60,432 nucleotides of DNA from Minisyncoccota bacterium (GTDB lineage Bacteria > Patescibacteriota > Minisyncoccia > UBA6257 > UBA9933). The DNA is taken from contig JBAZLC010000004.1 in the NCBI GenBank assembly GCA_041650415.1, forward strand, positions 1 to 60,432, in the 5' to 3' direction. Positions within the stretch are counted from its first letter, which is position 1, and the number at the start of each line of letters is the position of its first letter. The notes below the pieces were generated by a model. The model had not been told where the DNA came from, did not search any database, and was given only the letters and a program-made list of their open reading frames with translations. The position numbers and the translations under genes were made by a program. Positions 32,916 to 42,281 of the stretch are shown one piece after another.

Positions 32916-34907
32916 ATGAAATTTTCTTATACTTTAATTAAAAAACTGGCGCCAGTTGTAAAAAACAAAAAAGATTTAATAGAAAAATTGAATGAATTCG
33001 CCTTTGAGGCGGTTGATTTGGGCGGAAATTCTTTTGAAGTGGCGCTTCCGGCAAACAGATATTCCGATGCGGCTTCGCATATCGGAATTGCCCGCGAGGC
33101 TTCGGCGATTTACGGGAAAAAATTCGATTCGCCGGTTTTTAATCTGAAAAAATCGAAAAATGGCGGTCCGACAAAAGCGAATTTTAAAGTTTCAATAGAA
33201 GACAAGAAATTATGCTCGAGATATATGGGTTGGTATTTTGAGAATGTTAAAATCGGATCTTCTCCGAAATGGATGAAGGATGTTTTGGAAGAGTGCGGCT
33301 TGCGGCCGATAAACGCCGTGGTTGATATTATGAATTACGTCATGCTTGAAACCGGCCAGCCGTTGCATGCTTTTGATTACGACAAAATAGCTCAATCGCA
33401 GATTATCGTCCGTAAGGCGAAAAAAGGCGAAAAAATCGTTTCGTTGGACGATAAAAAATACGACCTTAATGAAAATATTTTGGTAATTGCCGATGCTAAA
33501 AATCCTTTGGCGATCGCCGGAATAAAAGGAGGAAAATTCGCCGAAGTTGTGCCGAGCACCAAACGGATAGTTGTTGAGGCGGCAAATTTTGCCGGCGCCA
33601 ATATCTATAGGGCTTCAAAATCGCTTAAACTTACCACAGACGCTTCCGTGATTTTTTCCCATAATATTTCTCCGGTTTTGGCCGAAATAGGATTAAACAG
33701 GGCGGGGCAGTTGCTTGAAGAAATTACTGGCGCAAAAGCGGGAAAAATTGTCGATGTGAATTATGCGAAACCAGGAAAGAAAATAATAAAATTCGATACC
33801 GAGAAATTCAAAAAATTGATAGGCGTTGATTTAAACGTTAAAATTTGCGGAGATTACCTTAGAAATTTGAGTTTTGGAATTAAGGCTGGTAATAAACAAA
33901 CGTTTTTAGTGGAAGTTCCGGCTTGGCGCAGCGATGTTTCCATTTTTGAAGACTTGGCGGAAGAAATTACCAGACTTTACGGTTTAAATAAATTAAAACC
34001 GCAGCCGCCGAAAATTTACATTCACCCGTCGGGCTTTGAAGACCAGATTGTTTTAAAGGATAAAATAAGAAAAATTTTGACGGGCTTCGGATTTGACGAG
34101 GTCTTGAACTATTCTTTTGTCGGCGATGGCGATTTGGATAAAAATCCCGTCTGGAAAAATAAATTATTGGAACTTGAAAATCCGATTAGCGGCCAAGCGA
34201 AATATATGAGGCCTTCTTTGACGCCGAATCTTATTAAAAATATAGAATCCAATTTCCGGTTTTTCGACGATATTAAAATTTTTGAAATCGGCAAAGTTTT
34301 TTACGGCAACACGCCTGAAAAATTAAATTTGGGAATTTTAATCGCCTCCAAAAAAGATAAACAGGTATTTTTTGAGTTGAAAGGAGCGATCGAAAAAATG
34401 TTTAAGAATATCGGTCTGGTTGATTATATGATGCCCGAACCGGAAAAAGGAGAATGGGTTAATGATTTTACCGGTAACTTGATTTCAAGTGAAATTTTGG
34501 AAATCGAATCCGAAGATAAAGTTATCGGTTATCTTGGCAGAGTTGATTATTCCGGCGCTGAAGCGGTTTTAGCGGAAATAAATTTGGATCTTTTACTTGA
34601 ATTAGTCGAAGAAGAGCATGAATACCGGCCGCTGTCGAAATACCCGTCGATTATGCGCGATGTTTCGGTTTTGGTGAGTCCGGCCGTAAAAGTCGGAGAA
34701 ATAATGAGACTTATTCAAGAATCCGATTTTAAAAACATTGAAGACGTAGACATGATTGATGAATATGAAATGAAAGACAAACGGAGCCTTACATTTAGGA
34801 TAATTTTTCATTCCGAAGAACGTACGCTTAAAGAAGAAGAAGCAAGCGGCGAAATGGAAAAAATAAAAAAACTTCTCAAATCAAAATTCGGAGCGGAGAT
34901 TAGATAA
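32916..34907 (+). CDS. pheT: Phenylalanine--tRNA ligase beta subunit, short form without the N-terminal tRNA-binding OB domain
   Basis: MKFSYTLIKKL start, B3_4 (INAVVDIMNYVMLETGQPLHAFDYDKI), B5 and C-terminal FDX-ACB (SLTFRIIFHSEERTL) regions. Confidence 0.85.
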   Translation: MKFSYTLIKKLAPVVKNKKDLIEKLNEFAFEAVDLGGNSFEVALPANRYSDAASHIGIAREASAIYGKKFDSPVFNLKKSKNGGPTKANFKVSIEDKKLCSRYMGWYFENVKIGSSPKWMKDVLEECGLRPINAVVDIMNYVMLETGQPLHAFDYDKIAQSQIIVRKAKKGEKIVSLDDKKYDLNENILVIADAKNPLAIAGIKGGKFAEVVPSTKRIVVEAANFAGANIYRASKSLKLTTDASVIFSHNISPVLAEIGLNRAGQLLEEITGAKAGKIVDVNYAKPGKKIIKFDTEKFKKLIGVDLNVKICGDYLRNLSFGIKAGNKQTFLVEVPAWRSDVSIFEDLAEEITRLYGLNKLKPQPPKIYIHPSGFEDQIVLKDKIRKILTGFGFDEVLNYSFVGDGDLDKNPVWKNKLLELENPISGQAKYMRPSLTPNLIKNIESNFRFFDDIKIFEIGKVFYGNTPEKLNLGILIASKKDKQVFFELKGAIEKMFKNIGLVDYMMPEPEKGEWVNDFTGNLISSEILEIESEDKVIGYLGRVDYSGAEAVLAEINLDLLLELVEEEHEYRPLSKYPSIMRDVSVLVSPAVKVGEIMRLIQESDFKNIEDVDMIDEYEMKDKRSLTFRIIFHSEERTLKEEEASGEMEKIKKLLKSKFGAEIR

Positions 34908-34917
34908 TATAAAAAAA

Positions 34918-34950
34918 CAGGCTTTCACTTGAGATGAAGCCTGTTTTTTT
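34918..34950 (+). terminator. Rho-independent terminator of pheT
   Basis: caggctt pairs with aagcctg, followed by TTTTTTT. Confidence 0.75.
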
Positions 34951-34963
34951 ATATACTTAAAAA

Positions 34964-37900
34964 ATGTTTAAAAACCTCAAAAATTTCAATCCCGCGGAAA
35001 TCGAGGAAAAAGTGCTTGAATTTTGGCAAATCAATAAAGTTTTCGAAAAATCAATAGAAAAGCCGGCATCGGAAAAGTCTAAGGGCGACTACGTTTTTTT
35101 TGACGGACCTCCTTTTGCCAATGGATTGCCTCATTACGGTCATATTTTGGCTTCAATAATAAAAGACGCGATTCCGAGATATCAAACAATGAAAGGAAAA
35201 AGCGTAAAAAGGCGCTGGGGTTGGGATTGCCACGGCTTGCCGGTTGAGTTTGAAATCGAAAAAGAACTCGGTTTGAAGAGTAAAAAAGACATTATTGAAT
35301 TCGGCGTTGAAAAATTCAACGAGTTTGCCAGAAAAAGCGTTTTAAAATACGAATCGGAGTGGAAAAAAACGATTCCGAGAATCGGCCGCTGGGTCGATAT
35401 GGAAAATCCGTATAAAACAATGGACGTTGAATATATGGAGTCGGTTTTGCACGTTTTCAAAAGTTTATATGATAAAAATTTAATTTACAAAGGCTATAAG
35501 CCGATGCATATTTGTCCGCGGTGCGAAACAACGCTTTCAAATTTCGAGGTCACTCAAAATTATAAAGATATCGAGGATTTCGCAGTCACGTTAAAATTTG
35601 AATTAGTGGATGAACCGAAAACTTTCGCGCTTGCCTGGACGACGACTGCCTGGACTTTGCCGGGAAACGTGGCTTTGGCGGTAAATCCGAAAATTTATTA
35701 CACAAAAATAAAAATCGGCGGCGAAAAATACGTTTTGGCGGAAGAAAGGTTGGGGATTATAAAAGAAAAATACGAAATTGTAGAAAAATTTAAAGGAGAT
35801 AAATTAGTCGGAAAAACCTACAAACCGCTTTTTGATTATTTTAGCCAGGACAAAACTTTAAAAAACCGGGAAAACGGATGGAAAATTTATCCGGCGGATT
35901 TCGTGAGTATTGAAGAAGGAACGGGCATAGTGCATATCGCTCCCGCTTTTGGCGCCGAAGACATGGAATTGGGCAAGGAATTTAATTTACCGTTCGTTCA
36001 ACACGTCGGTATGGATGGAAAAATAAAAAATGAAGCCGAAGACTTCGCCGGCTTAAAGGCAAAACCAAAAGAAAATACCAGAGAAACGGATGAAAAAGTA
36101 ATAAGTTTTCTTTCGGGAGAAAATTCGGTTTACGGACACGAAAAAATGGTCCACTCGTATCCGCATTGCTGGCGCTGTGAAAACCCGCTTTTGAATTATG
36201 CGGCGTCTTCGTGGTTTGTGAAGGTGACCGATATTAAAGACGGTCTTGTTAAAAATAATCAAAAAATAAGCTGGTTGCCGGCTCACATAAAAGACGGCAG
36301 ATTCGGCCAGTGGCTAAAAGACGCGCGGGATTGGGCGATTTCAAGAAGTCGTTTTTGGGGCGCTCCGCTTCCGGTTTGGGAGTGTAAAAATTGCGGAAAG
36401 CTAAAAGTTATAGGTTCAGTGGAAGAATTAAAGAAAAATTCGGAAAGCTCGGGCAATAAATATTTTGTAATGCGGCATGGGCAAGCGGAAAGTAATCTAC
36501 TCGGGGTTACGAGTTCAAATCATAAAAATAATCATCACCTTACCGATAAGGGTAAAAAAGAAGTAGAAGATGCGCTTAAAAAACTGAAAAATATCGATTT
36601 AATTTTTTCTTCCGATTTTGTCCGGACAAAAGAAACGGCGGAGATGACGGCGAAGCATTTGGAAATAAAAAAAGTTATCTACGATGAAAGATTGCGCGAG
36701 GTCAATACGGGAACTTTTGAGGGCAAAGCGGTAAAAGAATATCACGCTTATTTTTCTTCCACTGAAGAGAAGTTTATCAAGCCGACGCCAAAAGGTGAGA
36801 ATTTAACCGATTTAAAAAATCGTATAACAGAATTTATTTATGAAATTGAAAAAAAACATTCAAACAAAAATATTTTAATTATCAGTCATGAGTATCCAAT
36901 TTGGCTTTTGTTTGCCGGAGCTGAAGGAGCGGACGCCAAAAAAGCGATTGCGATGAGGGGCAAGAAAGACGACTTTTTGAAAACCGGAGAAATTAAAAAT
37001 TTAAAATTCGTTCCAATGCCGCATAATAGAAATTACGAGCTTGATTTACACAGGCCGTATATTGATAAAGTTGAACTTAGTTGTGGTTGTGACGGAAAGA
37101 TGAAAAGAATTGAAGACGTTTTCGATTGCTGGTTCGAGTCGGGCTCAATGCCTTACGGTCAATCGCATTACCCCTTCGCCGTAACAAACAATAAACGACA
37201 AATAACAAACAATAATTTACCGGTGCCAGCGGAATTTATTGCCGAGGGAATGGATCAGACACGCGGCTGGTTTTACACACTGCTTATTCTCTCAACAGCT
37301 TTGTTTAATAAACCGGCCTACAAAAATGTTATTGTTAACGGCATAATCTTGGCGGAAAGCGGCCAAAAAATGAGCAAACGCCTTAAAAATTATCCCGACC
37401 CGATGGAACTTGTTTCAAAATACGGCGCGGACAGTTTGCGGTTATATTTGCTTTCTTCGCCGGTGGTGGCGGGCGAGAACTTAAATTTTTCCGAAAAAGG
37501 CGTGGACGAAGTTTACAAAAAAATGATTCTGCGGCTTTGGAATACTTATAAATTTTATGAAATGTATGCGAGCGAACAAACGACAAACGACAAACGACAA
37601 ACGACAAACATTCTGGATGAATGGGTTATTGCCAGATTGGAGCAATTAAAACTGGAAGTTTCTGGCGCACTTGAAAATTACGAACTTGATAAGGCAGTTA
37701 GGCCACTTGGAGGTTTTATCGACGACCTTTCAACTTGGTATATCAGGCGTTCGCGCGAAAGATTTAAATCGGAAGGCAGTGATAAATCCGCCGCGATAGA
37801 AACGACGAAATACATTTTGTCGGAATTTTCAAAAATTCTTGCGCCATTCGCGCCATTTATAGCAGAAGCGGTTTATCAAAGCATAAATAGCAAACAAAAA

Positions 37901-38458
37901 GGAAGCGTGCATTTGGAAAAGTGGCCGGTTTTTGACAAAAAATTGATAGATAAAAATTTATTGGATTCAATGGCGGAAGTCAGAAAAATTGCTTCACTGG
38001 CTTTGGAATTAAGAGGTAAGGAAGGAATTAAAGTAAGACAGCCGTTGTCCTCGTTGAGTATTAAGAACAAAGTATTAAGTATTAAAGACGAAGAGTTATT
38101 AAATATTTTGGCGGACGAAATTAACGTTAAGCAAATTATTTTTAACGGTAAAATAAAAGAAGAAGTTGAATTAGATAAAAATATTACGCCGGAGTTGAAA
38201 GTCGAAGGATTATTAAGGGAAGCGGCGAGGGCGGTTCAGGATTTGAGAAAAGAAGCCGGCCTTTCGCCGAAAGATAAAATCGATTTATGGTTGGAAGTCC
38301 CGGCGGAAATCCGTTCGGCAATAGAGAAAAGCATAAACGAATTCAAAGAAAAAATTTGCGCTAAAAACGTTTATTTCGGCCGGACGGATAAGTTTGACGC
38401 CGAAACCGAAACAAAAATGGACGGTTCGCAAATCTGGGCGGGAGTTAAAAAAGTTTAA
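34964..38458 (+). CDS. ileS: Isoleucine--tRNA ligase (type 2-like) carrying an internal extra domain
   Basis: HIGH region PFANGLPHYGH, the editing domain, KMSKR (QKMSKRLKN) and an anticodon-binding C-terminus. Confidence 0.95.
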   Translation: MFKNLKNFNPAEIEEKVLEFWQINKVFEKSIEKPASEKSKGDYVFFDGPPFANGLPHYGHILASIIKDAIPRYQTMKGKSVKRRWGWDCHGLPVEFEIEKELGLKSKKDIIEFGVEKFNEFARKSVLKYESEWKKTIPRIGRWVDMENPYKTMDVEYMESVLHVFKSLYDKNLIYKGYKPMHICPRCETTLSNFEVTQNYKDIEDFAVTLKFELVDEPKTFALAWTTTAWTLPGNVALAVNPKIYYTKIKIGGEKYVLAEERLGIIKEKYEIVEKFKGDKLVGKTYKPLFDYFSQDKTLKNRENGWKIYPADFVSIEEGTGIVHIAPAFGAEDMELGKEFNLPFVQHVGMDGKIKNEAEDFAGLKAKPKENTRETDEKVISFLSGENSVYGHEKMVHSYPHCWRCENPLLNYAASSWFVKVTDIKDGLVKNNQKISWLPAHIKDGRFGQWLKDARDWAISRSRFWGAPLPVWECKNCGKLKVIGSVEELKKNSESSGNKYFVMRHGQAESNLLGVTSSNHKNNHHLTDKGKKEVEDALKKLKNIDLIFSSDFVRTKETAEMTAKHLEIKKVIYDERLREVNTGTFEGKAVKEYHAYFSSTEEKFIKPTPKGENLTDLKNRITEFIYEIEKKHSNKNILIISHEYPIWLLFAGAEGADAKKAIAMRGKKDDFLKTGEIKNLKFVPMPHNRNYELDLHRPYIDKVELSCGCDGKMKRIEDVFDCWFESGSMPYGQSHYPFAVTNNKRQITNNNLPVPAEFIAEGMDQTRGWFYTLLILSTALFNKPAYKNVIVNGIILAESGQKMSKRLKNYPDPMELVSKYGADSLRLYLLSSPVVAGENLNFSEKGVDEVYKKMILRLWNTYKFYEMYASEQTTNDKRQTTNILDEWVIARLEQLKLEVSGALENYELDKAVRPLGGFIDDLSTWYIRRSRERFKSEGSDKSAAIETTKYILSEFSKILAPFAPFIAEAVYQSINSKQKGSVHLEKWPVFDKKLIDKNLLDSMAEVRKIASLALELRGKEGIKVRQPLSSLSIKNKVLSIKDEELLNILADEINVKQIIFNGKIKEEVELDKNITPELKVEGLLREAARAVQDLRKEAGLSPKDKIDLWLEVPAEIRSAIEKSINEFKEKICAKNVYFGRTDKFDAETETKMDGSQIWAGVKKV
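36458..37030 (+). other. Histidine-phosphatase (PGAM / His_Phos_1-like) domain inserted in-frame in IleRS, about residues 499-689
   Basis: KYFVMRHGQAESN (RHG motif), SSDFVRTKETAE, RLREVNTGTFEGK, ILIISHEYPI. It is flanked by the normally near-contiguous IleRS segments VWECKNCGKLKVIGSVEEL and DLHRPYIDKVELSCGCDGKMKRIEDVFDCWFESGSMPY. Confidence 0.75.
37574..37610. repeat. Tandem heptamer (CAAACGA / ACGACAA) of at least four units inside ileS
   Basis: gaacaaacgacaaacgacaaacgacaaacgacaaaca, translated EQTTNDKRQTTN. Confidence 0.85.
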
Positions 38459-38526: not shown

Positions 38527-39825
38527 ATGATAATCACAAATTTTAAAACTTTAATAAAGACTCCACTTCGAAAAAAGGCGCTTCAGATTGTCGAGGCGGG
38601 CTATGAAGCGATAAATATAGAAAAAGCGGTAAAAAATAAAATAAAACTAAGCGGCAATAATCTATCTATTTCTGATGCTATGACGCGTCATAGTATTAAT
38701 TTAAATGACTATAAAAAGATTTTTATTATTGGGATTGGTAAGGGTTCGGCATTGGCAAGCGCGGCGCTGGCAAAAATTCTCGGCAGTAAATTAAGCAAGG
38801 GAATTGTCATTGACATTGAAAAACCAAAATTAGAAATTAAAAATTCAAAATTAGAAATTTTTAAAGGCACTCACCCCATCTCTTCAACGCAAAATATAAA
38901 AGCTACAAAGAAAATAATTGAATTAGCGGAAAATACATGCGAAGACGATTTAATAATTTCTTTTATTTGTGGTGGAGGTTCGGCTTTGCTTTGCGGTTCG
39001 GAAAAAGAAGCAAAAAACTCCAGGGAAATTTTTAAAAAATTAACCGGCGCCGGAGCGAATATTATTGAAATAAATACAATAAGAAAGCATTTATCAGAAG
39101 TAAAAGGCGGAGGTTTGGCAAAAATCGCTTATCCGGCAACCGTGTTTTCTCTTATCGTTTCCGATGTTTTTAAAAACGATTTATCCATGGTGGCTTCAGG
39201 TCCGACCATTTATGATAAAACTGCAAAAAAAGACGCGGAGAAGATATTGGTAAACTACAAACTACGAACTACAAACTATGAACTACTTGAAACACCGAAA
39301 GATAGGAAATATTTTAAAAAAGTTAAAAATATTTTATTCATTTCCAATCATGAGCCGGTTAAGGCAATGATGAAAAAAGCGGAGAAACTGGGTTTTTCGC
39401 CGAAAATTTACTCATATAATTTGAAAGGCGAAGCAAAAAACGTTTTTATTCCACTTACAAAAAAAGTGAAAAATAAAGGTGTGATTATTGCCGGAGGGGA
39501 AACAACTATTGTTTTGGGTAATAATCCGGGCAAGGGAGGAAGAAATATGGAAGCCGTTTTAGGAGCAATAACCAGGTCTCAAAATCCGATTTCCAGCAAT
39601 TTAGTGGTAATTTCTTTTGCCAGTGATGGTAGAGATAACACCGATGCCGCGGGAGCTATTGGCGATATTTTAACCATAAAAAAAGCCAAGAAATTTAAAT
39701 TGGACTTTGAAAAACATCTTAAAAGCCATAGTACTTGGGAATTCTTTAAAAAAACCGATGATTTGATTTTTGCGGAAAAGAAAAATTTTAACGTTTCGGA
39801 CTTGATGTTGGTTATTAAAGAGTAA
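38527..39825 (+). CDS. Glycerate kinase, MOFRL family (DUF4147 + MOFRL)
   Basis: GIGKGSALASAA, CGGGSALL, IRKHLSEVKGGGLA, AGGETTIVL...GKGGRNME, SFASDGRDN. Confidence 0.8.
   Translation: MIITNFKTLIKTPLRKKALQIVEAGYEAINIEKAVKNKIKLSGNNLSISDAMTRHSINLNDYKKIFIIGIGKGSALASAALAKILGSKLSKGIVIDIEKPKLEIKNSKLEIFKGTHPISSTQNIKATKKIIELAENTCEDDLIISFICGGGSALLCGSEKEAKNSREIFKKLTGAGANIIEINTIRKHLSEVKGGGLAKIAYPATVFSLIVSDVFKNDLSMVASGPTIYDKTAKKDAEKILVNYKLRTTNYELLETPKDRKYFKKVKNILFISNHEPVKAMMKKAEKLGFSPKIYSYNLKGEAKNVFIPLTKKVKNKGVIIAGGETTIVLGNNPGKGGRNMEAVLGAITRSQNPISSNLVVISFASDGRDNTDAAGAIGDILTIKKAKKFKLDFEKHLKSHSTWEFFKKTDDLIFAEKKNFNVSDLMLVIKE
38826..38862. repeat. AAATTNN / TTAGAAA heptamer tract inside the glycerate kinase gene
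   Basis: aaaattagaaattaaaaattcaaaattagaaattttt, translated KLEIKNSKLEIF. Confidence 0.7.
39252..39286. repeat. Five tandem RAACTAY heptamers inside the glycerate kinase gene
   Basis: aaactac aaactac gaactac aaactat gaactac, translated NYKLRTTNYELL. Confidence 0.85.
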
Positions 39826-39869: not shown

Positions 39870-42281
39870 ATGAATAAAAAACAAGATTTTATTAAGCAAT
39901 ATAAAGATGTCGGGATTAAAAATGTCATGGAGGTTGGCGGAAAGAACGGTTCCCTCGGCGAAATGATTAAATATTTGAAACCTAAAGGCGTAAATGTTCC
40001 CGATGGATTCGCGATAACGGCCGCCGCTTACAGATTTTTCCTGGAAAATTCCAAAATAGGCAATAAAGCATTGAAGGTTTTCATAAAAGAAGCATTATCT
40101 GGTTTAAATACTCATAACCTTCCCGATTTGGCGAGGCGCGGGAAATTGGTAAGGGAAACTATAAAAAGCGTTGAAATACCTAAAGAACTTGCGAATGAAA
40201 TAGTTAAAAATTACGAAAAACTTGAAAAAGAATACGGTAAAAATGCGGATGTGGCGGTTCGCACCAGTGGTACAACCGAAGACGCGCCTGACGCTTCGTT
40301 TGCCGGTCAATACGAGACTTTTTTGAATATTCGAGGCGCCGAAGAGGTTTTACAGGCCGTAAAGGAGTCTTTTGCTTCTTTGTTCACCGATAGGGCGATT
40401 TCTTACAGAGCGGATAAAGGCTTTGATTATACAAAAATGGCGCTTTCGGTAGGCGTGCAAAAAATGGTGCGTTCGGACTTGGGATGTTCGGGGATAATAT
40501 TTACTCTTGATACGGAATCGGGTTTTCCCGGGGTTGTTTTAATAAACGGTGCTTGGGGGTTGGGAGAAATGATAGTTCAAGGAGAAGTGACGCCGGACGA
40601 ATTTTTAGTTTTCAAAAAAACAAAAGCAATTATAAATAAAAAGCTTGCGGAGAAAAGCCGGAAAATGATTTATTCGGCCGGCCATGGGATAAAAAAGACT
40701 AAAGTAGTAGACGTGAAAAAAGAAGATAAAGAAAGATTTGTTTTGAATGAAAAGGAAATTTTGAAATTGGCGGAATGGGCGGTAATGATAGAAGATCATT
40801 ATTCTAAAATTCGTAAAAAATGGACGCCAATGGATATGGAGTGGGCGAAAGACGGCAAAACCGGAGAATTATTTATCGTTCAGGCAAGGCCGGAAACGGT
40901 TCATAGTCGCCGCGACTTTTCAAAAATAAAAGAATATGAGCTTCAGGCTTCAGGTTCCAAGTTTAAAGTTATAGTTAAGGGCGCCTCCGTCGGCAATAAA
41001 ATCGCTACGGGTAAAGCGCGGATAATTTTAGACGCTAAACAGATAAATCAATTTAAAGCGGGCGAGGTTTTAATAACCGATATGACGGACCCGGATTGGG
41101 AACCGATTATGAAAATCGCCTCGGCGATTGTAACGGATAAAGGCGGACGTACAAGCCATGCGGCCATAGTTTCCCGGGAATTGGGCATTCCTTGCGTTGT
41201 AGGTTCCGGTAGCGCCACAAAAAAGATAAAAACGGGCCAAACCGTCACCGTAGACACTACTTCCAGTGAGGGCGTGGTTTATGACGGCGCTTTGAAATTT
41301 AAAATAGTGGAAAGCGATGTTAAAAAATTTCCCAAGCCCAAGACTAAAATAATGATGAATATTGCCACTTCGGACACGGCTTTTGAAAAATCGCTTTTGC
41401 CGAATGACGGCGTCGGGCTTGCGAGAGAAGAATTTATTATCGCCAGCGATATCGGAATTCATCCGAATGCGTTGATAAATTACAACAAACTACAAACCAC
41501 AAACAAAAAACTTAAAACCCAAATAGACCAAAAAACGGTGGGGTATAAAGACAAAAAGAAATTTTACGTTGACAAGCTGGCGTATGGAATCGCGAAAATT
41601 GGCGCGGCGTTCTATCCAAAACAGGTAATCGTCCGGTTCTCGGATTTTAAAACGAATGAATATCGAAGCTTAATCGGCGGGGAAATTTACGAACCACAGG
41701 AAGAAAATCCGATGATTGGCTGGCGTGGCGCTTCCCGCTATTATCATCCGAATTTTGTTTCAGCCTTTTTATTGGAGCTTGAAGCGATTAAAAAAGTCCG
41801 CGAGGAAATGAAATTAGACAACGTGGTCGTGATGGTGCCGTTTTGTCGGACAGTGGAAGAAGGGAAGAAAGTGGTTGCGATAATCAGGAAGCATTTAAAA
41901 CCGTTGAAAATTTTCGTAATGTGCGAGATTCCTTCGAATGTTGTTTTAGTGGATGAATTTTTAAATGTATTTGACGGGATGAGCATTGGTTCAAATGATT
42001 TGACGCAATTAACCGTCGGCATAGACCGCGATGCTTCCGAATTGGTCCGCGGCGTGGCAAACGAGAAAGACGAATCGGTCAAAAAGTTGATTTCCGAGGT
42101 AATCAAAAAATGCCTAAAGCGTAAGAAATATATCGGTATTTGTGGCCAGGCACCTTCGGACTATTCGGATTTCGCCGAGTTTTTGGTGGAAGAGGGCATT
42201 GAGAGTATGTCGTTGAACCCGGATACGGTTATAAAAACAACTTTGAAAGTTTACGAGAAAGAAAAAAAGTTAAAGAAATAA
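39870..42281 (+). CDS. ppsA: Phosphoenolpyruvate synthase
   Basis: ATP-grasp N-terminal domain, phosphohistidine motif GGRTSHAAIVSRELGIP, and a C-terminal PEP-utilising TIM barrel. Confidence 0.9.
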   Translation: MNKKQDFIKQYKDVGIKNVMEVGGKNGSLGEMIKYLKPKGVNVPDGFAITAAAYRFFLENSKIGNKALKVFIKEALSGLNTHNLPDLARRGKLVRETIKSVEIPKELANEIVKNYEKLEKEYGKNADVAVRTSGTTEDAPDASFAGQYETFLNIRGAEEVLQAVKESFASLFTDRAISYRADKGFDYTKMALSVGVQKMVRSDLGCSGIIFTLDTESGFPGVVLINGAWGLGEMIVQGEVTPDEFLVFKKTKAIINKKLAEKSRKMIYSAGHGIKKTKVVDVKKEDKERFVLNEKEILKLAEWAVMIEDHYSKIRKKWTPMDMEWAKDGKTGELFIVQARPETVHSRRDFSKIKEYELQASGSKFKVIVKGASVGNKIATGKARIILDAKQINQFKAGEVLITDMTDPDWEPIMKIASAIVTDKGGRTSHAAIVSRELGIPCVVGSGSATKKIKTGQTVTVDTTSSEGVVYDGALKFKIVESDVKKFPKPKTKIMMNIATSDTAFEKSLLPNDGVGLAREEFIIASDIGIHPNALINYNKLQTTNKKLKTQIDQKTVGYKDKKKFYVDKLAYGIAKIGAAFYPKQVIVRFSDFKTNEYRSLIGGEIYEPQEENPMIGWRGASRYYHPNFVSAFLLELEAIKKVREEMKLDNVVVMVPFCRTVEEGKKVVAIIRKHLKPLKIFVMCEIPSNVVLVDEFLNVFDGMSIGSNDLTQLTVGIDRDASELVRGVANEKDESVKKLISEVIKKCLKRKKYIGICGQAPSDYSDFAEFLVEEGIESMSLNPDTVIKTTLKVYEKEKKLKK

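Follow-up and report, generated by a model that had tools for sequence, protein, structure and literature searches.

The 60,432-nucleotide window analyzed here (contig JBAZLC010000004.1, positions 1 to 60,432, from the Minisyncoccota bacterium assembly GCA_041650415.1) encodes a type-2 isoleucyl-tRNA synthetase (IleRS) that carries a small histidine phosphatase within its own polypeptide (Table 1). The gene, ileS, is a single uninterrupted open reading frame (ORF) of 1164 codons with no stops and no frameshifts, and the Pfam families along its product follow in the order tRNA-synt_1, His_Phos_1, tRNA-synt_1 and then Anticodon_1 and DUF5915. An earlier note, made from the letters alone, had described a complete in-frame histidine-phosphatase domain inside ileS, and this is borne out by the single ORF and by the match to His_Phos_1 [PF00300, residues 501–661, E = 1.7e-30, 106.5 bits in the context of the whole protein (cutoff 21.7)]. 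The boundaries it gave for the domain, corresponding to residues 499–689, are correct, and alignment with insert-less IleRS widens the inserted segment to residues ~494–692. Aminoacyl-tRNA synthetases are among the best-studied enzymes and the second activities known to be built into them are editing hydrolases, while phosphatase chemistry is, to our knowledge, part of no described charging cycle.

Table 1. Features of the ileS gene, its nested phosphatase and a phosphoglycerate mutase-type ORF, in coordinates of the 60,432-nucleotide window.
Feature	Position	Strand	Basis or remarks
ileS, type-2 isoleucyl-tRNA synthetase with nested phosphatase	34964..38458	+	1164 amino acids (aa); ORF, TIGR00392, Foldseek
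HIGH signature H57-Y-G-H60, aminoacylation site	35132..35143	+	read from sequence; P56–H60 at least 90% conserved, 102 homologues
CP1 editing Thr-rich motif T226-T227-T228-A-W230-T231	35639..35656	+	conservation, 102 homologues
CP3 zinc knuckle, first half, C474-x-x-C477	36383..36394	+	each Cys in 108/109 homologues
Full inserted segment, residues ~494–692	36443-37039	+	alignment with insert-less IleRS
Nested His_Phos_1 domain, residues 499–689	36458..37030	+	PF00300, PDB matches, model
R504-H505 of the RHG motif (504–506); H505 predicted phospho-accepting nucleophile	36473..36478	+	conservation
N511, phosphate-pocket residue	36494..36496	+	109/109 homologues
R554, second phosphate-binding arginine, in SDFVRTKETA	36623..36625	+	109/109 homologues
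E579, predicted proton donor, in REVNTG	36698..36700	+	109/109 homologues
H642, second catalytic histidine, in ISHEYP	36887..36889	+	109/109 homologues
CP3 zinc knuckle, second half, C707-G-C709	37082..37090	+	C707 in 107/109, C709 in 93/109 homologues
KMSKR (K802–R806), KMSKS loop of the aminoacylation site	37367..37381	+	read from sequence; conservation
Variable loop, residues 871–881, before the anticodon-binding domain (site 2)	37574..37606	+	loop pLDDT ~62
Cofactor-independent phosphoglycerate mutase-type ORF, Metalloenzyme family, 516 aa	43773-45248	-	same window

The synthetase body is that of a type-2 IleRS, which is the eukaryote- and archaea-like, mupirocin-resistant type. TIGR00392 (isoleucine–tRNA ligase) matches the whole protein with 877.8 bits (cutoff 621.4) in two stretches that flank the insert, and the body is alike throughout to the type-2 enzymes of Priestia megaterium (IleRS2, 8C8U/8C8V), Thermus thermophilus (1ILE) and yeast and Candida (8WND, 7D5C, 6LDK), having in common with them a Rossmann core with HIGH and KMSKR, the CP core, the CP1 editing domain, CP2, CP3, the anticodon-binding domain and a DUF5915-type C-terminal domain [Foldseek template-modeling (TM) scores of 0.82–0.91, target-normalised; phmmer E of 1e-208 to 1e-226]. 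The C-terminal match (PF19302 DUF5915, residues 1033–1163) is the type-2 region and not the bacterial type-1 zinc-binding domain, and type-1 IleRS structures (8C9E, 1FFY) score far below the type-2 ones. The AlphaFold2 model of the full-length protein, built from 102 sequences, is confident [mean predicted local distance difference test score (pLDDT) 91.2, predicted TM score (pTM) 0.85], and its body superimposes on 8C8V with a TM of 0.82 and on the yeast IleRS-tRNA complex 8WND with a TM of 0.83. Across the 102 homologues K802 and K805 of the KMSKR loop never vary and M803 and S804 are each kept in at least 90%, while T226, T227, T228, W230 and T231 of the CP1 motif, together with the editing-pocket residues H324 and D333, are invariant, and editing therefore looks intact. 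A second IleRS is absent from the 605-kb genome (21 contigs, 96% complete), and since ileS is the sole one the cell's Ile-tRNA must come from it; on this ground its product would charge tRNA-Ile specifically with isoleucine.

The insert has the score, the catalytic core and the alpha/beta fold of the His_Phos_1 family. Taken by itself it scores 111.7 bits against PF00300 (cutoff 21.7), its blocks in the full-length model have pLDDT values of 89–97, and the fold assignment from the profile search agrees with Foldseek, which superimposes it on the Hydrogenobacter PspA phosphoserine phosphatase (4IJ5/4IJ6, TM 0.70, rmsd 2.9 Å) and on Geobacillus PhoE (1H2E, TM 0.67), the two proteins that are also its closest sequence matches in the PDB (E = 1e-13 for 4IJ5). 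The nearest folds are PspA, TIGAR, PhoE, the riboflavin-pathway phosphatase 9MMH, CobC and Rv2419c, all of them small-molecule phosphatases of ~200 aa, and true mutases rank below these phosphatases. With the branch-1 small histidine phosphatases (4IJ5, 1H2E, 1EBB, 6E4B, 6NRU, 3DCY, 9MMH and 4PZ9, among which 1H2E and 1EBB are Geobacillus PhoE/YhfR, 6E4B and 6NRU are CobC, 3DCY is TIGAR, 9MMH is the riboflavin-pathway HFP and 4PZ9 is Rv2419c) the insert shares fold, a size of ~190–210 aa and the catalytic set R-H-N-R-E-H, at TM values of 0.63–0.70 and identities of 20–26% (phmmer E of 1e-13 to 3e-5 for those that match by sequence). Those enzymes, however, are free-standing or terminally fused (PFKFB, Rv2228c) and have known small-molecule substrates, whereas the insert is nested in a loop of a synthetase. 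A parallel in partner is the bifunctional Rv2228c-type RNase H/CobC-like acid phosphatase (NF005567), in which a histidine phosphatase of the same branch is fused to a nucleic-acid enzyme; its model is third among the NCBIfam matches of the insert alone (74.5 bits, cutoff 326), the insert is not a member, and the fusion to RNase H is terminal rather than nested. The insert falls below every NCBIfam equivalog cutoff, including those for the CobC alpha-ribazole phosphatase (TIGR03162, 76.1 bits, cutoff 162.9) and for the metal-independent PspA-type phosphoserine phosphatase (NF045917, 71.9 bits, cutoff 350), which provides the nearest solved structure and is not an equivalog, and therefore no substrate can be transferred by homology.

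Conservation of the active site is established in every context in which the domain was found. All of the motifs quoted in the earlier note are present, RHG at residues 504–506, SDFVRTKETA with R554, REVNTG with E579 and ISHEYP with H642, and their catalytic residues are 99–100% conserved among homologous inserts (R504 in 108 and H505 in 109 of 109 full-length homologues; the remainder in Table 1). R504 and H505 are retained by all 55 locus-derived copies whatever their context, and the complete catalytic set is present in 55/55, including both copies of tandems, copies in valyl-tRNA synthetase (ValRS) hosts and free genes. In the wider set the N511 position is nearly always N or Q, with other residues in a few isolated proteins, the E579 position is E or D with a single exception, R554 is invariant across a 62-sequence cross-context alignment and H642 is invariant across contexts. 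When 214 domain copies from every context found are compared, 162 read R-H-N-R-E-H, and most of the others are truncated fragments or differ by a conservative change, N to Q or E to D. Averaged over pairs, identity is 56% in the insert, 59% in CP1, 58% in the anticodon-binding domain and 44% in the C-terminal domain, and by this measure the insert is under as much constraint as the editing domain. The module is thus likely to be catalytically active, judged by the residues that it keeps.

The insertion point lies in CP3. The protein has the four-Cys zinc motif found in CP3 of T. thermophilus IleRS, and its four cysteines (C474, C477, C707 and C709) are conserved in 99%, 99%, 98% and 85% of 109 full-length homologues; in the alignment C474-x-x-C477 is retained by most insert-less relatives and C707-G-C709 pairs with the CxC or CxxC of insert-less IleRS. 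Between the "ELK" helix and "HRP" there are ~20–25 residues in six insert-less IleRS of sister lineages and ~195 in the ileS product, in keeping with the earlier statement that type-2 enzymes normally have a few tens of residues at this point. IleRS from human, yeast, Thermus and Priestia align to residues ~1–493 and resume at ~694, with a handful of their own residues between, and in solved or described IleRS no domain lies within CP3 and the knuckle halves are ~5–40 residues apart, against ~195 here. Residue 492 aligns with residue 498 of Candida IleRS, in which the CP3 subdomain comprises residues 473–534 and of which the T. thermophilus equivalent has the zinc motif (PMC7191050). Because the two Cys pairs flank the insert and the region corresponds to CP3 of the Candida and T. 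thermophilus enzymes, the phosphatase is placed, by alignment, in the loop of the CP3 zinc knuckle. A second hydrolytic site inserted in the Rossmann-fold body has a precedent in the CP1 editing domain of the class Ia enzymes IleRS, ValRS and LeuRS, which is conserved about as strongly as the phosphatase insert and is the typical synthetase insert in a 2026 census of domain insertions. CP1, however, is universal and hydrolyzes mischarged aminoacyl esters. The insert comes from a superfamily unrelated to it and occurs in only part of the Patescibacteria, and its chemistry, unlike that of CP1, is not known to play any part in charging.

The nested form is widespread. A homologue search with the insert and its junctions as query gave thousands of matches, and in every one of the 120 best, which reach down to 53% identity, PF00300 is found together with IleRS domains. 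Their source assemblies, from NCBI, JGI, ENA and Logan, bear the labels Wolfebacteria, Niyogibacteria, Yonathbacteria, Parcubacteria and Patescibacteria, and the same architecture recurs in more than 100 independent assemblies from different projects. A scan of GTDB, with one genome per species and a tight 12-sequence insert alignment as query, found a relative of the domain in at least 542 species genomes, and in all 80 loci kept from it the domain is inside ileS, including those of the complete genomes CP011209 (Wolfebacteria) and CP011215 (Campbellbacteria). A survey of 401 Patescibacteria genomes searched with the insert at E ≤ 1e-8, from which all counts are lower bounds, gave a match in at least 146, and the domain is present in 22 of the 23 sampled genomes of the source genome's own class. 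Some records appear to extend this range, since L067 (QYPD01000003.1) and many TPA records labelled "uncultured Candidatus Saccharibacteria" (among L065–L144) have a Paceibacteria-type ileS and are titled Spirochaetia or Saccharibacteria; these titles are probably binning or labelling errors rather than occurrences outside the clade.

The same phosphatase is joined to synthetases in several other ways, and the recurrence of the pairing, which went unmentioned in the earlier note, is directly observed. In IleRS a single copy at CP3 (site 1) was found in at least 32 genomes checked and two tandem copies in at least seven (ORFs of 1466–1553 aa), while one metagenomic protein (P0163) has four copies in a row. 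A second site, the loop before the anticodon-binding domain (site 2), is occupied in at least three genomes (L045, L051 and L157) and in P0233; in the ileS product itself this loop (residues ~865–884) contains no phosphatase, only a peptide encoded by a heptanucleotide repeat [(ACAAACG)x4.9, positions 37576–37609, 100% matches]. ValRS is the host in at least 11 of the 401 genomes, at profile positions ~415–460, which are the CP3 equivalent; of these 11 hosts, 10 exceed the cutoff of 704 for NF004349 and the other exceeds that for TIGR00422, one has a tandem domain pair, and two genomes (G147 and G314) have the domain in both IleRS and ValRS. Host ORFs in the survey were typed with custom profiles and NCBIfam, six long host ORFs falling outside this typing, and among the long ORFs so classified no host other than IleRS or ValRS was found.

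The phosphatase is also encoded by stand-alone genes of ~190–210 aa. At E ≤ 1e-10 this family has 518 members, assigned to Parcubacteria or Paceibacterota whenever they are named, and they end at "GEhRKL", the counterpart of the last strand of the insert. The order argS-phosphatase-ileS occurs in four of four long contigs, in which ileS is an insert-less type-2 gene (949–966 aa) whose start is abutted by the phosphatase gene, with a 4-bp overlap in L062. In all three genomes of family f16, from the source genome's own class, argS and the phosphatase are followed by one or two other genes and an insert-less ileS. Conversely, among 61 nested loci with at least 3 kb upstream, argS lies upstream on the same strand in 37 and directly abuts ileS in 15, and therefore one and the same locus occurs both split and nested. 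In three further genomes a free copy adjoins an ileS that itself has a nested copy. Three stand-alone phosphatases of ~195 aa (P0273, P0290 and P0302) carry the JGI annotation "isoleucyl-tRNA synthetase", a label that presumably spread from the nested form. In the f16 loci a gene between the phosphatase and ileS (L053:6430-7278, +; L054:5809-6555, −) has a weak match to the alternative oxidase family (PF01786, E ~1e-10 to 1e-11), which is unexpected in fermentative Patescibacteria; the f16 genes in this position have no NCBIfam match, and neighboring ORFs of 427–498 aa are without any family match.

Two other readings of the insert are rejected. If it were the cofactor-dependent phosphoglycerate mutase (dPGM) of the cell, fused to IleRS by chance, the nearby glycolytic genes would be fitting company, and the archaeal dPGM model NF038349 is indeed the best NCBIfam match by score. 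That score, however, is 84.6 bits against a cutoff of 225, TIGR01258 (pgm_1) gives 20 bits against 81.7, and the catalytic Glu begins the sequence E-V-N-T-G and not the E-R-H-Y-G that is typical of cofactor-dependent mutases. The genome moreover has its own cofactor-independent phosphoglycerate mutase (iPGM) of ~516 aa, as do 20 of 20 relatives sampled, and the nested domain is its only His_Phos_1 member. On the presence of this iPGM, the sub-cutoff scores of the dPGM models and the ranking of true mutases under phosphatases in the fold search, the domain is not a glycolytic mutase, and we give that identity hardly any credence. Smaller still is the chance of an artefact or a selfish element, whether a chimeric assembly, two genes joined by a frameshift or an intein that would leave the mature protein. 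G+C is slightly lower in the insert than in its flanks (0.34 compared to 0.41–0.45), but the 3′ part of ileS is equally low, the frame is uninterrupted and the identical architecture is seen in the assemblies and the two complete genomes cited above; a chimera is not credible because the layout is reproduced in hundreds of independent assemblies, so that the frameshift or assembly join that the earlier note had allowed for is not borne out. As to an intein, for which that note had seen no hallmarks, a Pfam scan of the ileS product found no intein, Hint or endonuclease family, and in the model the phosphatase fold fills the insert from the strand at residues 499–504 to that at 677–680, between junctions that read ...SSGN/KYFV... 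and ...PMPHNRNYELDLH...; the absence of such families and a fold that accounts for the whole insert lead us to reject it.

The explanation that we favor, with a probability of about 0.8, is that the ileS product is a one-polypeptide chimera of a functional type-2 IleRS and an active small histidine phosphatase, a second site that is kept physically coupled to Ile and Val synthetases. A PhoE/PspA/CobC-like histidine phosphatase of ~195 residues would have been spliced into the CP3 knuckle loop and would stay in the mature polypeptide, giving an enzyme with two independent catalytic centers. By homology with the superfamily, the module would hydrolyze a phosphomonoester via a phospho-His505 intermediate, with the phosphate held by R504, N511, R554 and H642 and a proton donated by E579. 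It may descend from, or be exchangeable with, the stand-alone ~190-aa gene that lies between argS and ileS in sister lineages, and the pair would have been joined repeatedly, in CP3 of IleRS, at the site before the anticodon-binding domain of IleRS, at the equivalent site of ValRS and as two to four tandem copies. The different sites and different hosts mean that this was not a single event, and it is from the repeated joining that the phosphatase is read as a second active site coupled to these synthetases.

Several points weigh against this explanation or limit how far it can be taken. The conserved catalytic residues are also compatible with ligand binding without turnover, and operon adjacency and fusion prove co-inheritance and co-expression rather than a common substrate. 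CP3 makes no tRNA contact in published descriptions of type-2 IleRS-tRNA complexes. Some free-standing relatives are away from synthetase genes, for example beside rubrerythrin or Maf, and ~64% of the Patescibacteria sampled lack any close relative of the phosphatase domain among the matches listed, which means that IleRS does not generally need a phosphatase. The number and direction of free-to-nested transitions are uncertain, since support is lacking for 47 of the 94 inner branches of the domain tree; its poor resolution limited its use to three local groupings.

What the phosphatase acts on is a separate question, in which the chimera of IleRS and phosphatase is compatible with several answers. 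The candidate placed first, tentatively and at somewhat under even odds, is a small phosphomonoester, nucleotide-like or of a sugar, that is linked to charging, because small-molecule enzymes are the nearest relatives of the insert and several of them (CobC, 9MMH, RosC) act on ribose- or ribityl-5′-phosphates; a phosphoprotein substrate is improbable. The same relatives would also suit an ordinary housekeeping phosphatase of broad specificity that is tethered to ileS or valS in these minimal genomes for co-expression or stability and has a substrate unrelated to charging. As the only His_Phos member in a 605-kb genome it may cover general needs, CP3 is a permissive surface loop, and some free-standing relatives are away from synthetase genes. 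Against such a tether stand the repeated and varied joining (two IleRS sites, ValRS, tandems and an abutting upstream gene) and the absence of any non-synthetase host among the long ORFs classified, and a link for expression only would not predict nesting at several points or amplification of copies within the synthetase; we regard it as unlikely, at perhaps one chance in four or five.

Somewhat more doubtful is a phosphatase of RNA ends, acting on a phosphate at the 3′ end of tRNA. The association is exclusive to class Ia enzymes that handle tRNA, tandem amplification is typical of modules that act on polymers or need high local activity, and site 1 follows a strand with the conserved catalytic-core motif W-x-ISR-x-R-x-WG-x-P-x-P, so that by general class I topology it should, we presume, lie on the active-site side of the Rossmann sheet. 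However, we know of no branch-1 histidine phosphatase with RNA ends as its substrate, and the structures closest to the insert belong to small-molecule enzymes. In published structures of type-2 IleRS with tRNA, the contacts described for the acceptor stem are few, with none ascribed to CP3, and there is no reason for the tRNAs of Ile and Val alone to need an end phosphatase. The module could instead be a metabolite sensor, binding a phospho-metabolite (such as 3-phosphoglycerate or 2,3-bisphosphoglycerate) and tuning IleRS to the energy state through CP3, with catalysis secondary. A conserved phosphate pocket would serve binding as well as turnover, and the neighbors in the window are lower-glycolysis genes (glycerate-kinase-like, PEP-synthase-like and iPGM). 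Yet nearly all copies retain both the nucleophile His and the Glu/Asp proton donor, which speaks for full turnover, a stand-alone version could pass on a conformational signal only by binding IleRS, and the glycolytic neighborhood is not general, argS being the usual neighbor; a sensor has the least probability of these readings. That the phosphatase activity of the chimera serves aminoacylation in some form is what the recurrent pairing suggests, but the stronger proposal, in which the nested or operon-encoded phosphatase acts on the charging system and constitutes a third active site, with a role in translation, of the class Ia synthetases of many Patescibacteria, is itself doubtful, to about the same degree as the RNA-end phosphatase.

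The nested phosphatase is real, widespread and apparently undescribed. A search of the full-text literature, with subscription journals outside its scope, found no description of a histidine phosphatase in or beside a synthetase, the entries of AARS Online include no phosphatase, and the 2026 domain-insertion census gives only editing domains for synthetase hosts. Sequences with this architecture have stood in public databases, under generic names, since about 2015. A complete phosphatase site has been kept under strong selection within IleRS and ValRS, or next to them, in hundreds of species whose genomes are among the smallest known, and small genomes tend to lose dispensable genes; the at least four ways of joining (CP3, the pre-anticodon loop, the ValRS site and tandems), together with adjacent genes, are a classic signature of functional partnership. 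If a tRNA end, a modified synthetase or a charging by-product proved to be the substrate, translation would gain a new step and the superfamily a new class of substrate, and if the phosphatase does act on the charging system it would be the first RNA- or translation-directed histidine phosphatase and would build a repair or counter-toxin step into aminoacylation. If it is only a tethered housekeeping enzyme, it would still be a clean natural case of one domain nested in an essential enzyme, and it would mark a large clade of Patescibacteria.

Other catalytic domains also occur within IleRS. The NCBIfam family NF040702 (ileS_w_GNAT) is likewise an IleRS with an extra catalytic domain, but this is a GNAT domain within the CP1 region, whereas the ileS product has a phosphatase in CP3, scores 320.9 against the NF040702 cutoff of 1999, has no GNAT match in its Pfam scan and is not a member. 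One homologue (P0108, 1325 aa) contains both, a GNAT acetyltransferase in the CP1 region and the phosphatase. A further insertion of ~150–170 aa in the CP1 region, which interrupts the match to the IleRS N-terminal profile around position 250–300, is present in L054:474-3953 (−) (ileS of G389, 1160 aa) and L157:1156-5400 (−) (ileS of G314, 1415 aa). In Patescibacteria, IleRS seems to serve as a scaffold for additional enzymes.

The surroundings of ileS have features of their own. Between the pheT stop and the ileS start is an 18-nucleotide perfect inverted repeat, ATATAAAAAAACAGGCTT / AAGCCTGTTTTTTTATAT, with a 12-nucleotide loop (positions 34907–34954), which looks like an intrinsic terminator, possibly a bidirectional one; a terminator upstream of ileS would mean that ileS has its own promoter here. 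On the 3′ side of ileS is a lower-glycolysis neighborhood, with a glycerate-kinase-like ORF (38527–39825) and a phosphoenolpyruvate (PEP)-synthase-like ORF (39870–42281), both named from their sequence and not by profile search, followed by the iPGM-type ORF. In a relative from the same order (G417, L059) the iPGM-type matches, C37:3078-4577 and C17:3588-5087, have four and two in-frame TGA codons, respectively, which could reflect TGA recoding or pseudogenes. Tandem heptanucleotide arrays (units ACAAACG x4.9, AAAATTA x4.9 and AAACTAC x5 across the window arrays) are found in ileS, at 37184–37210 in addition to the site-2 array, in the glycerate-kinase-like ORF (38826–38859 and 39252–39286) and in the PEP-synthase-like ORF (41482–41523), and the reading frame is kept in all three. 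A 7-nucleotide unit in a coding region is unusual because the gain or loss of one or two copies shifts the frame. The peptides that the ileS arrays encode, among them QTTNDKRQTTN and TNNKRQITNNN, form loops modeled with low confidence, and the same loops in homologues have other heptamer-like peptides, for example KIQNTKYKIQN in P0004.

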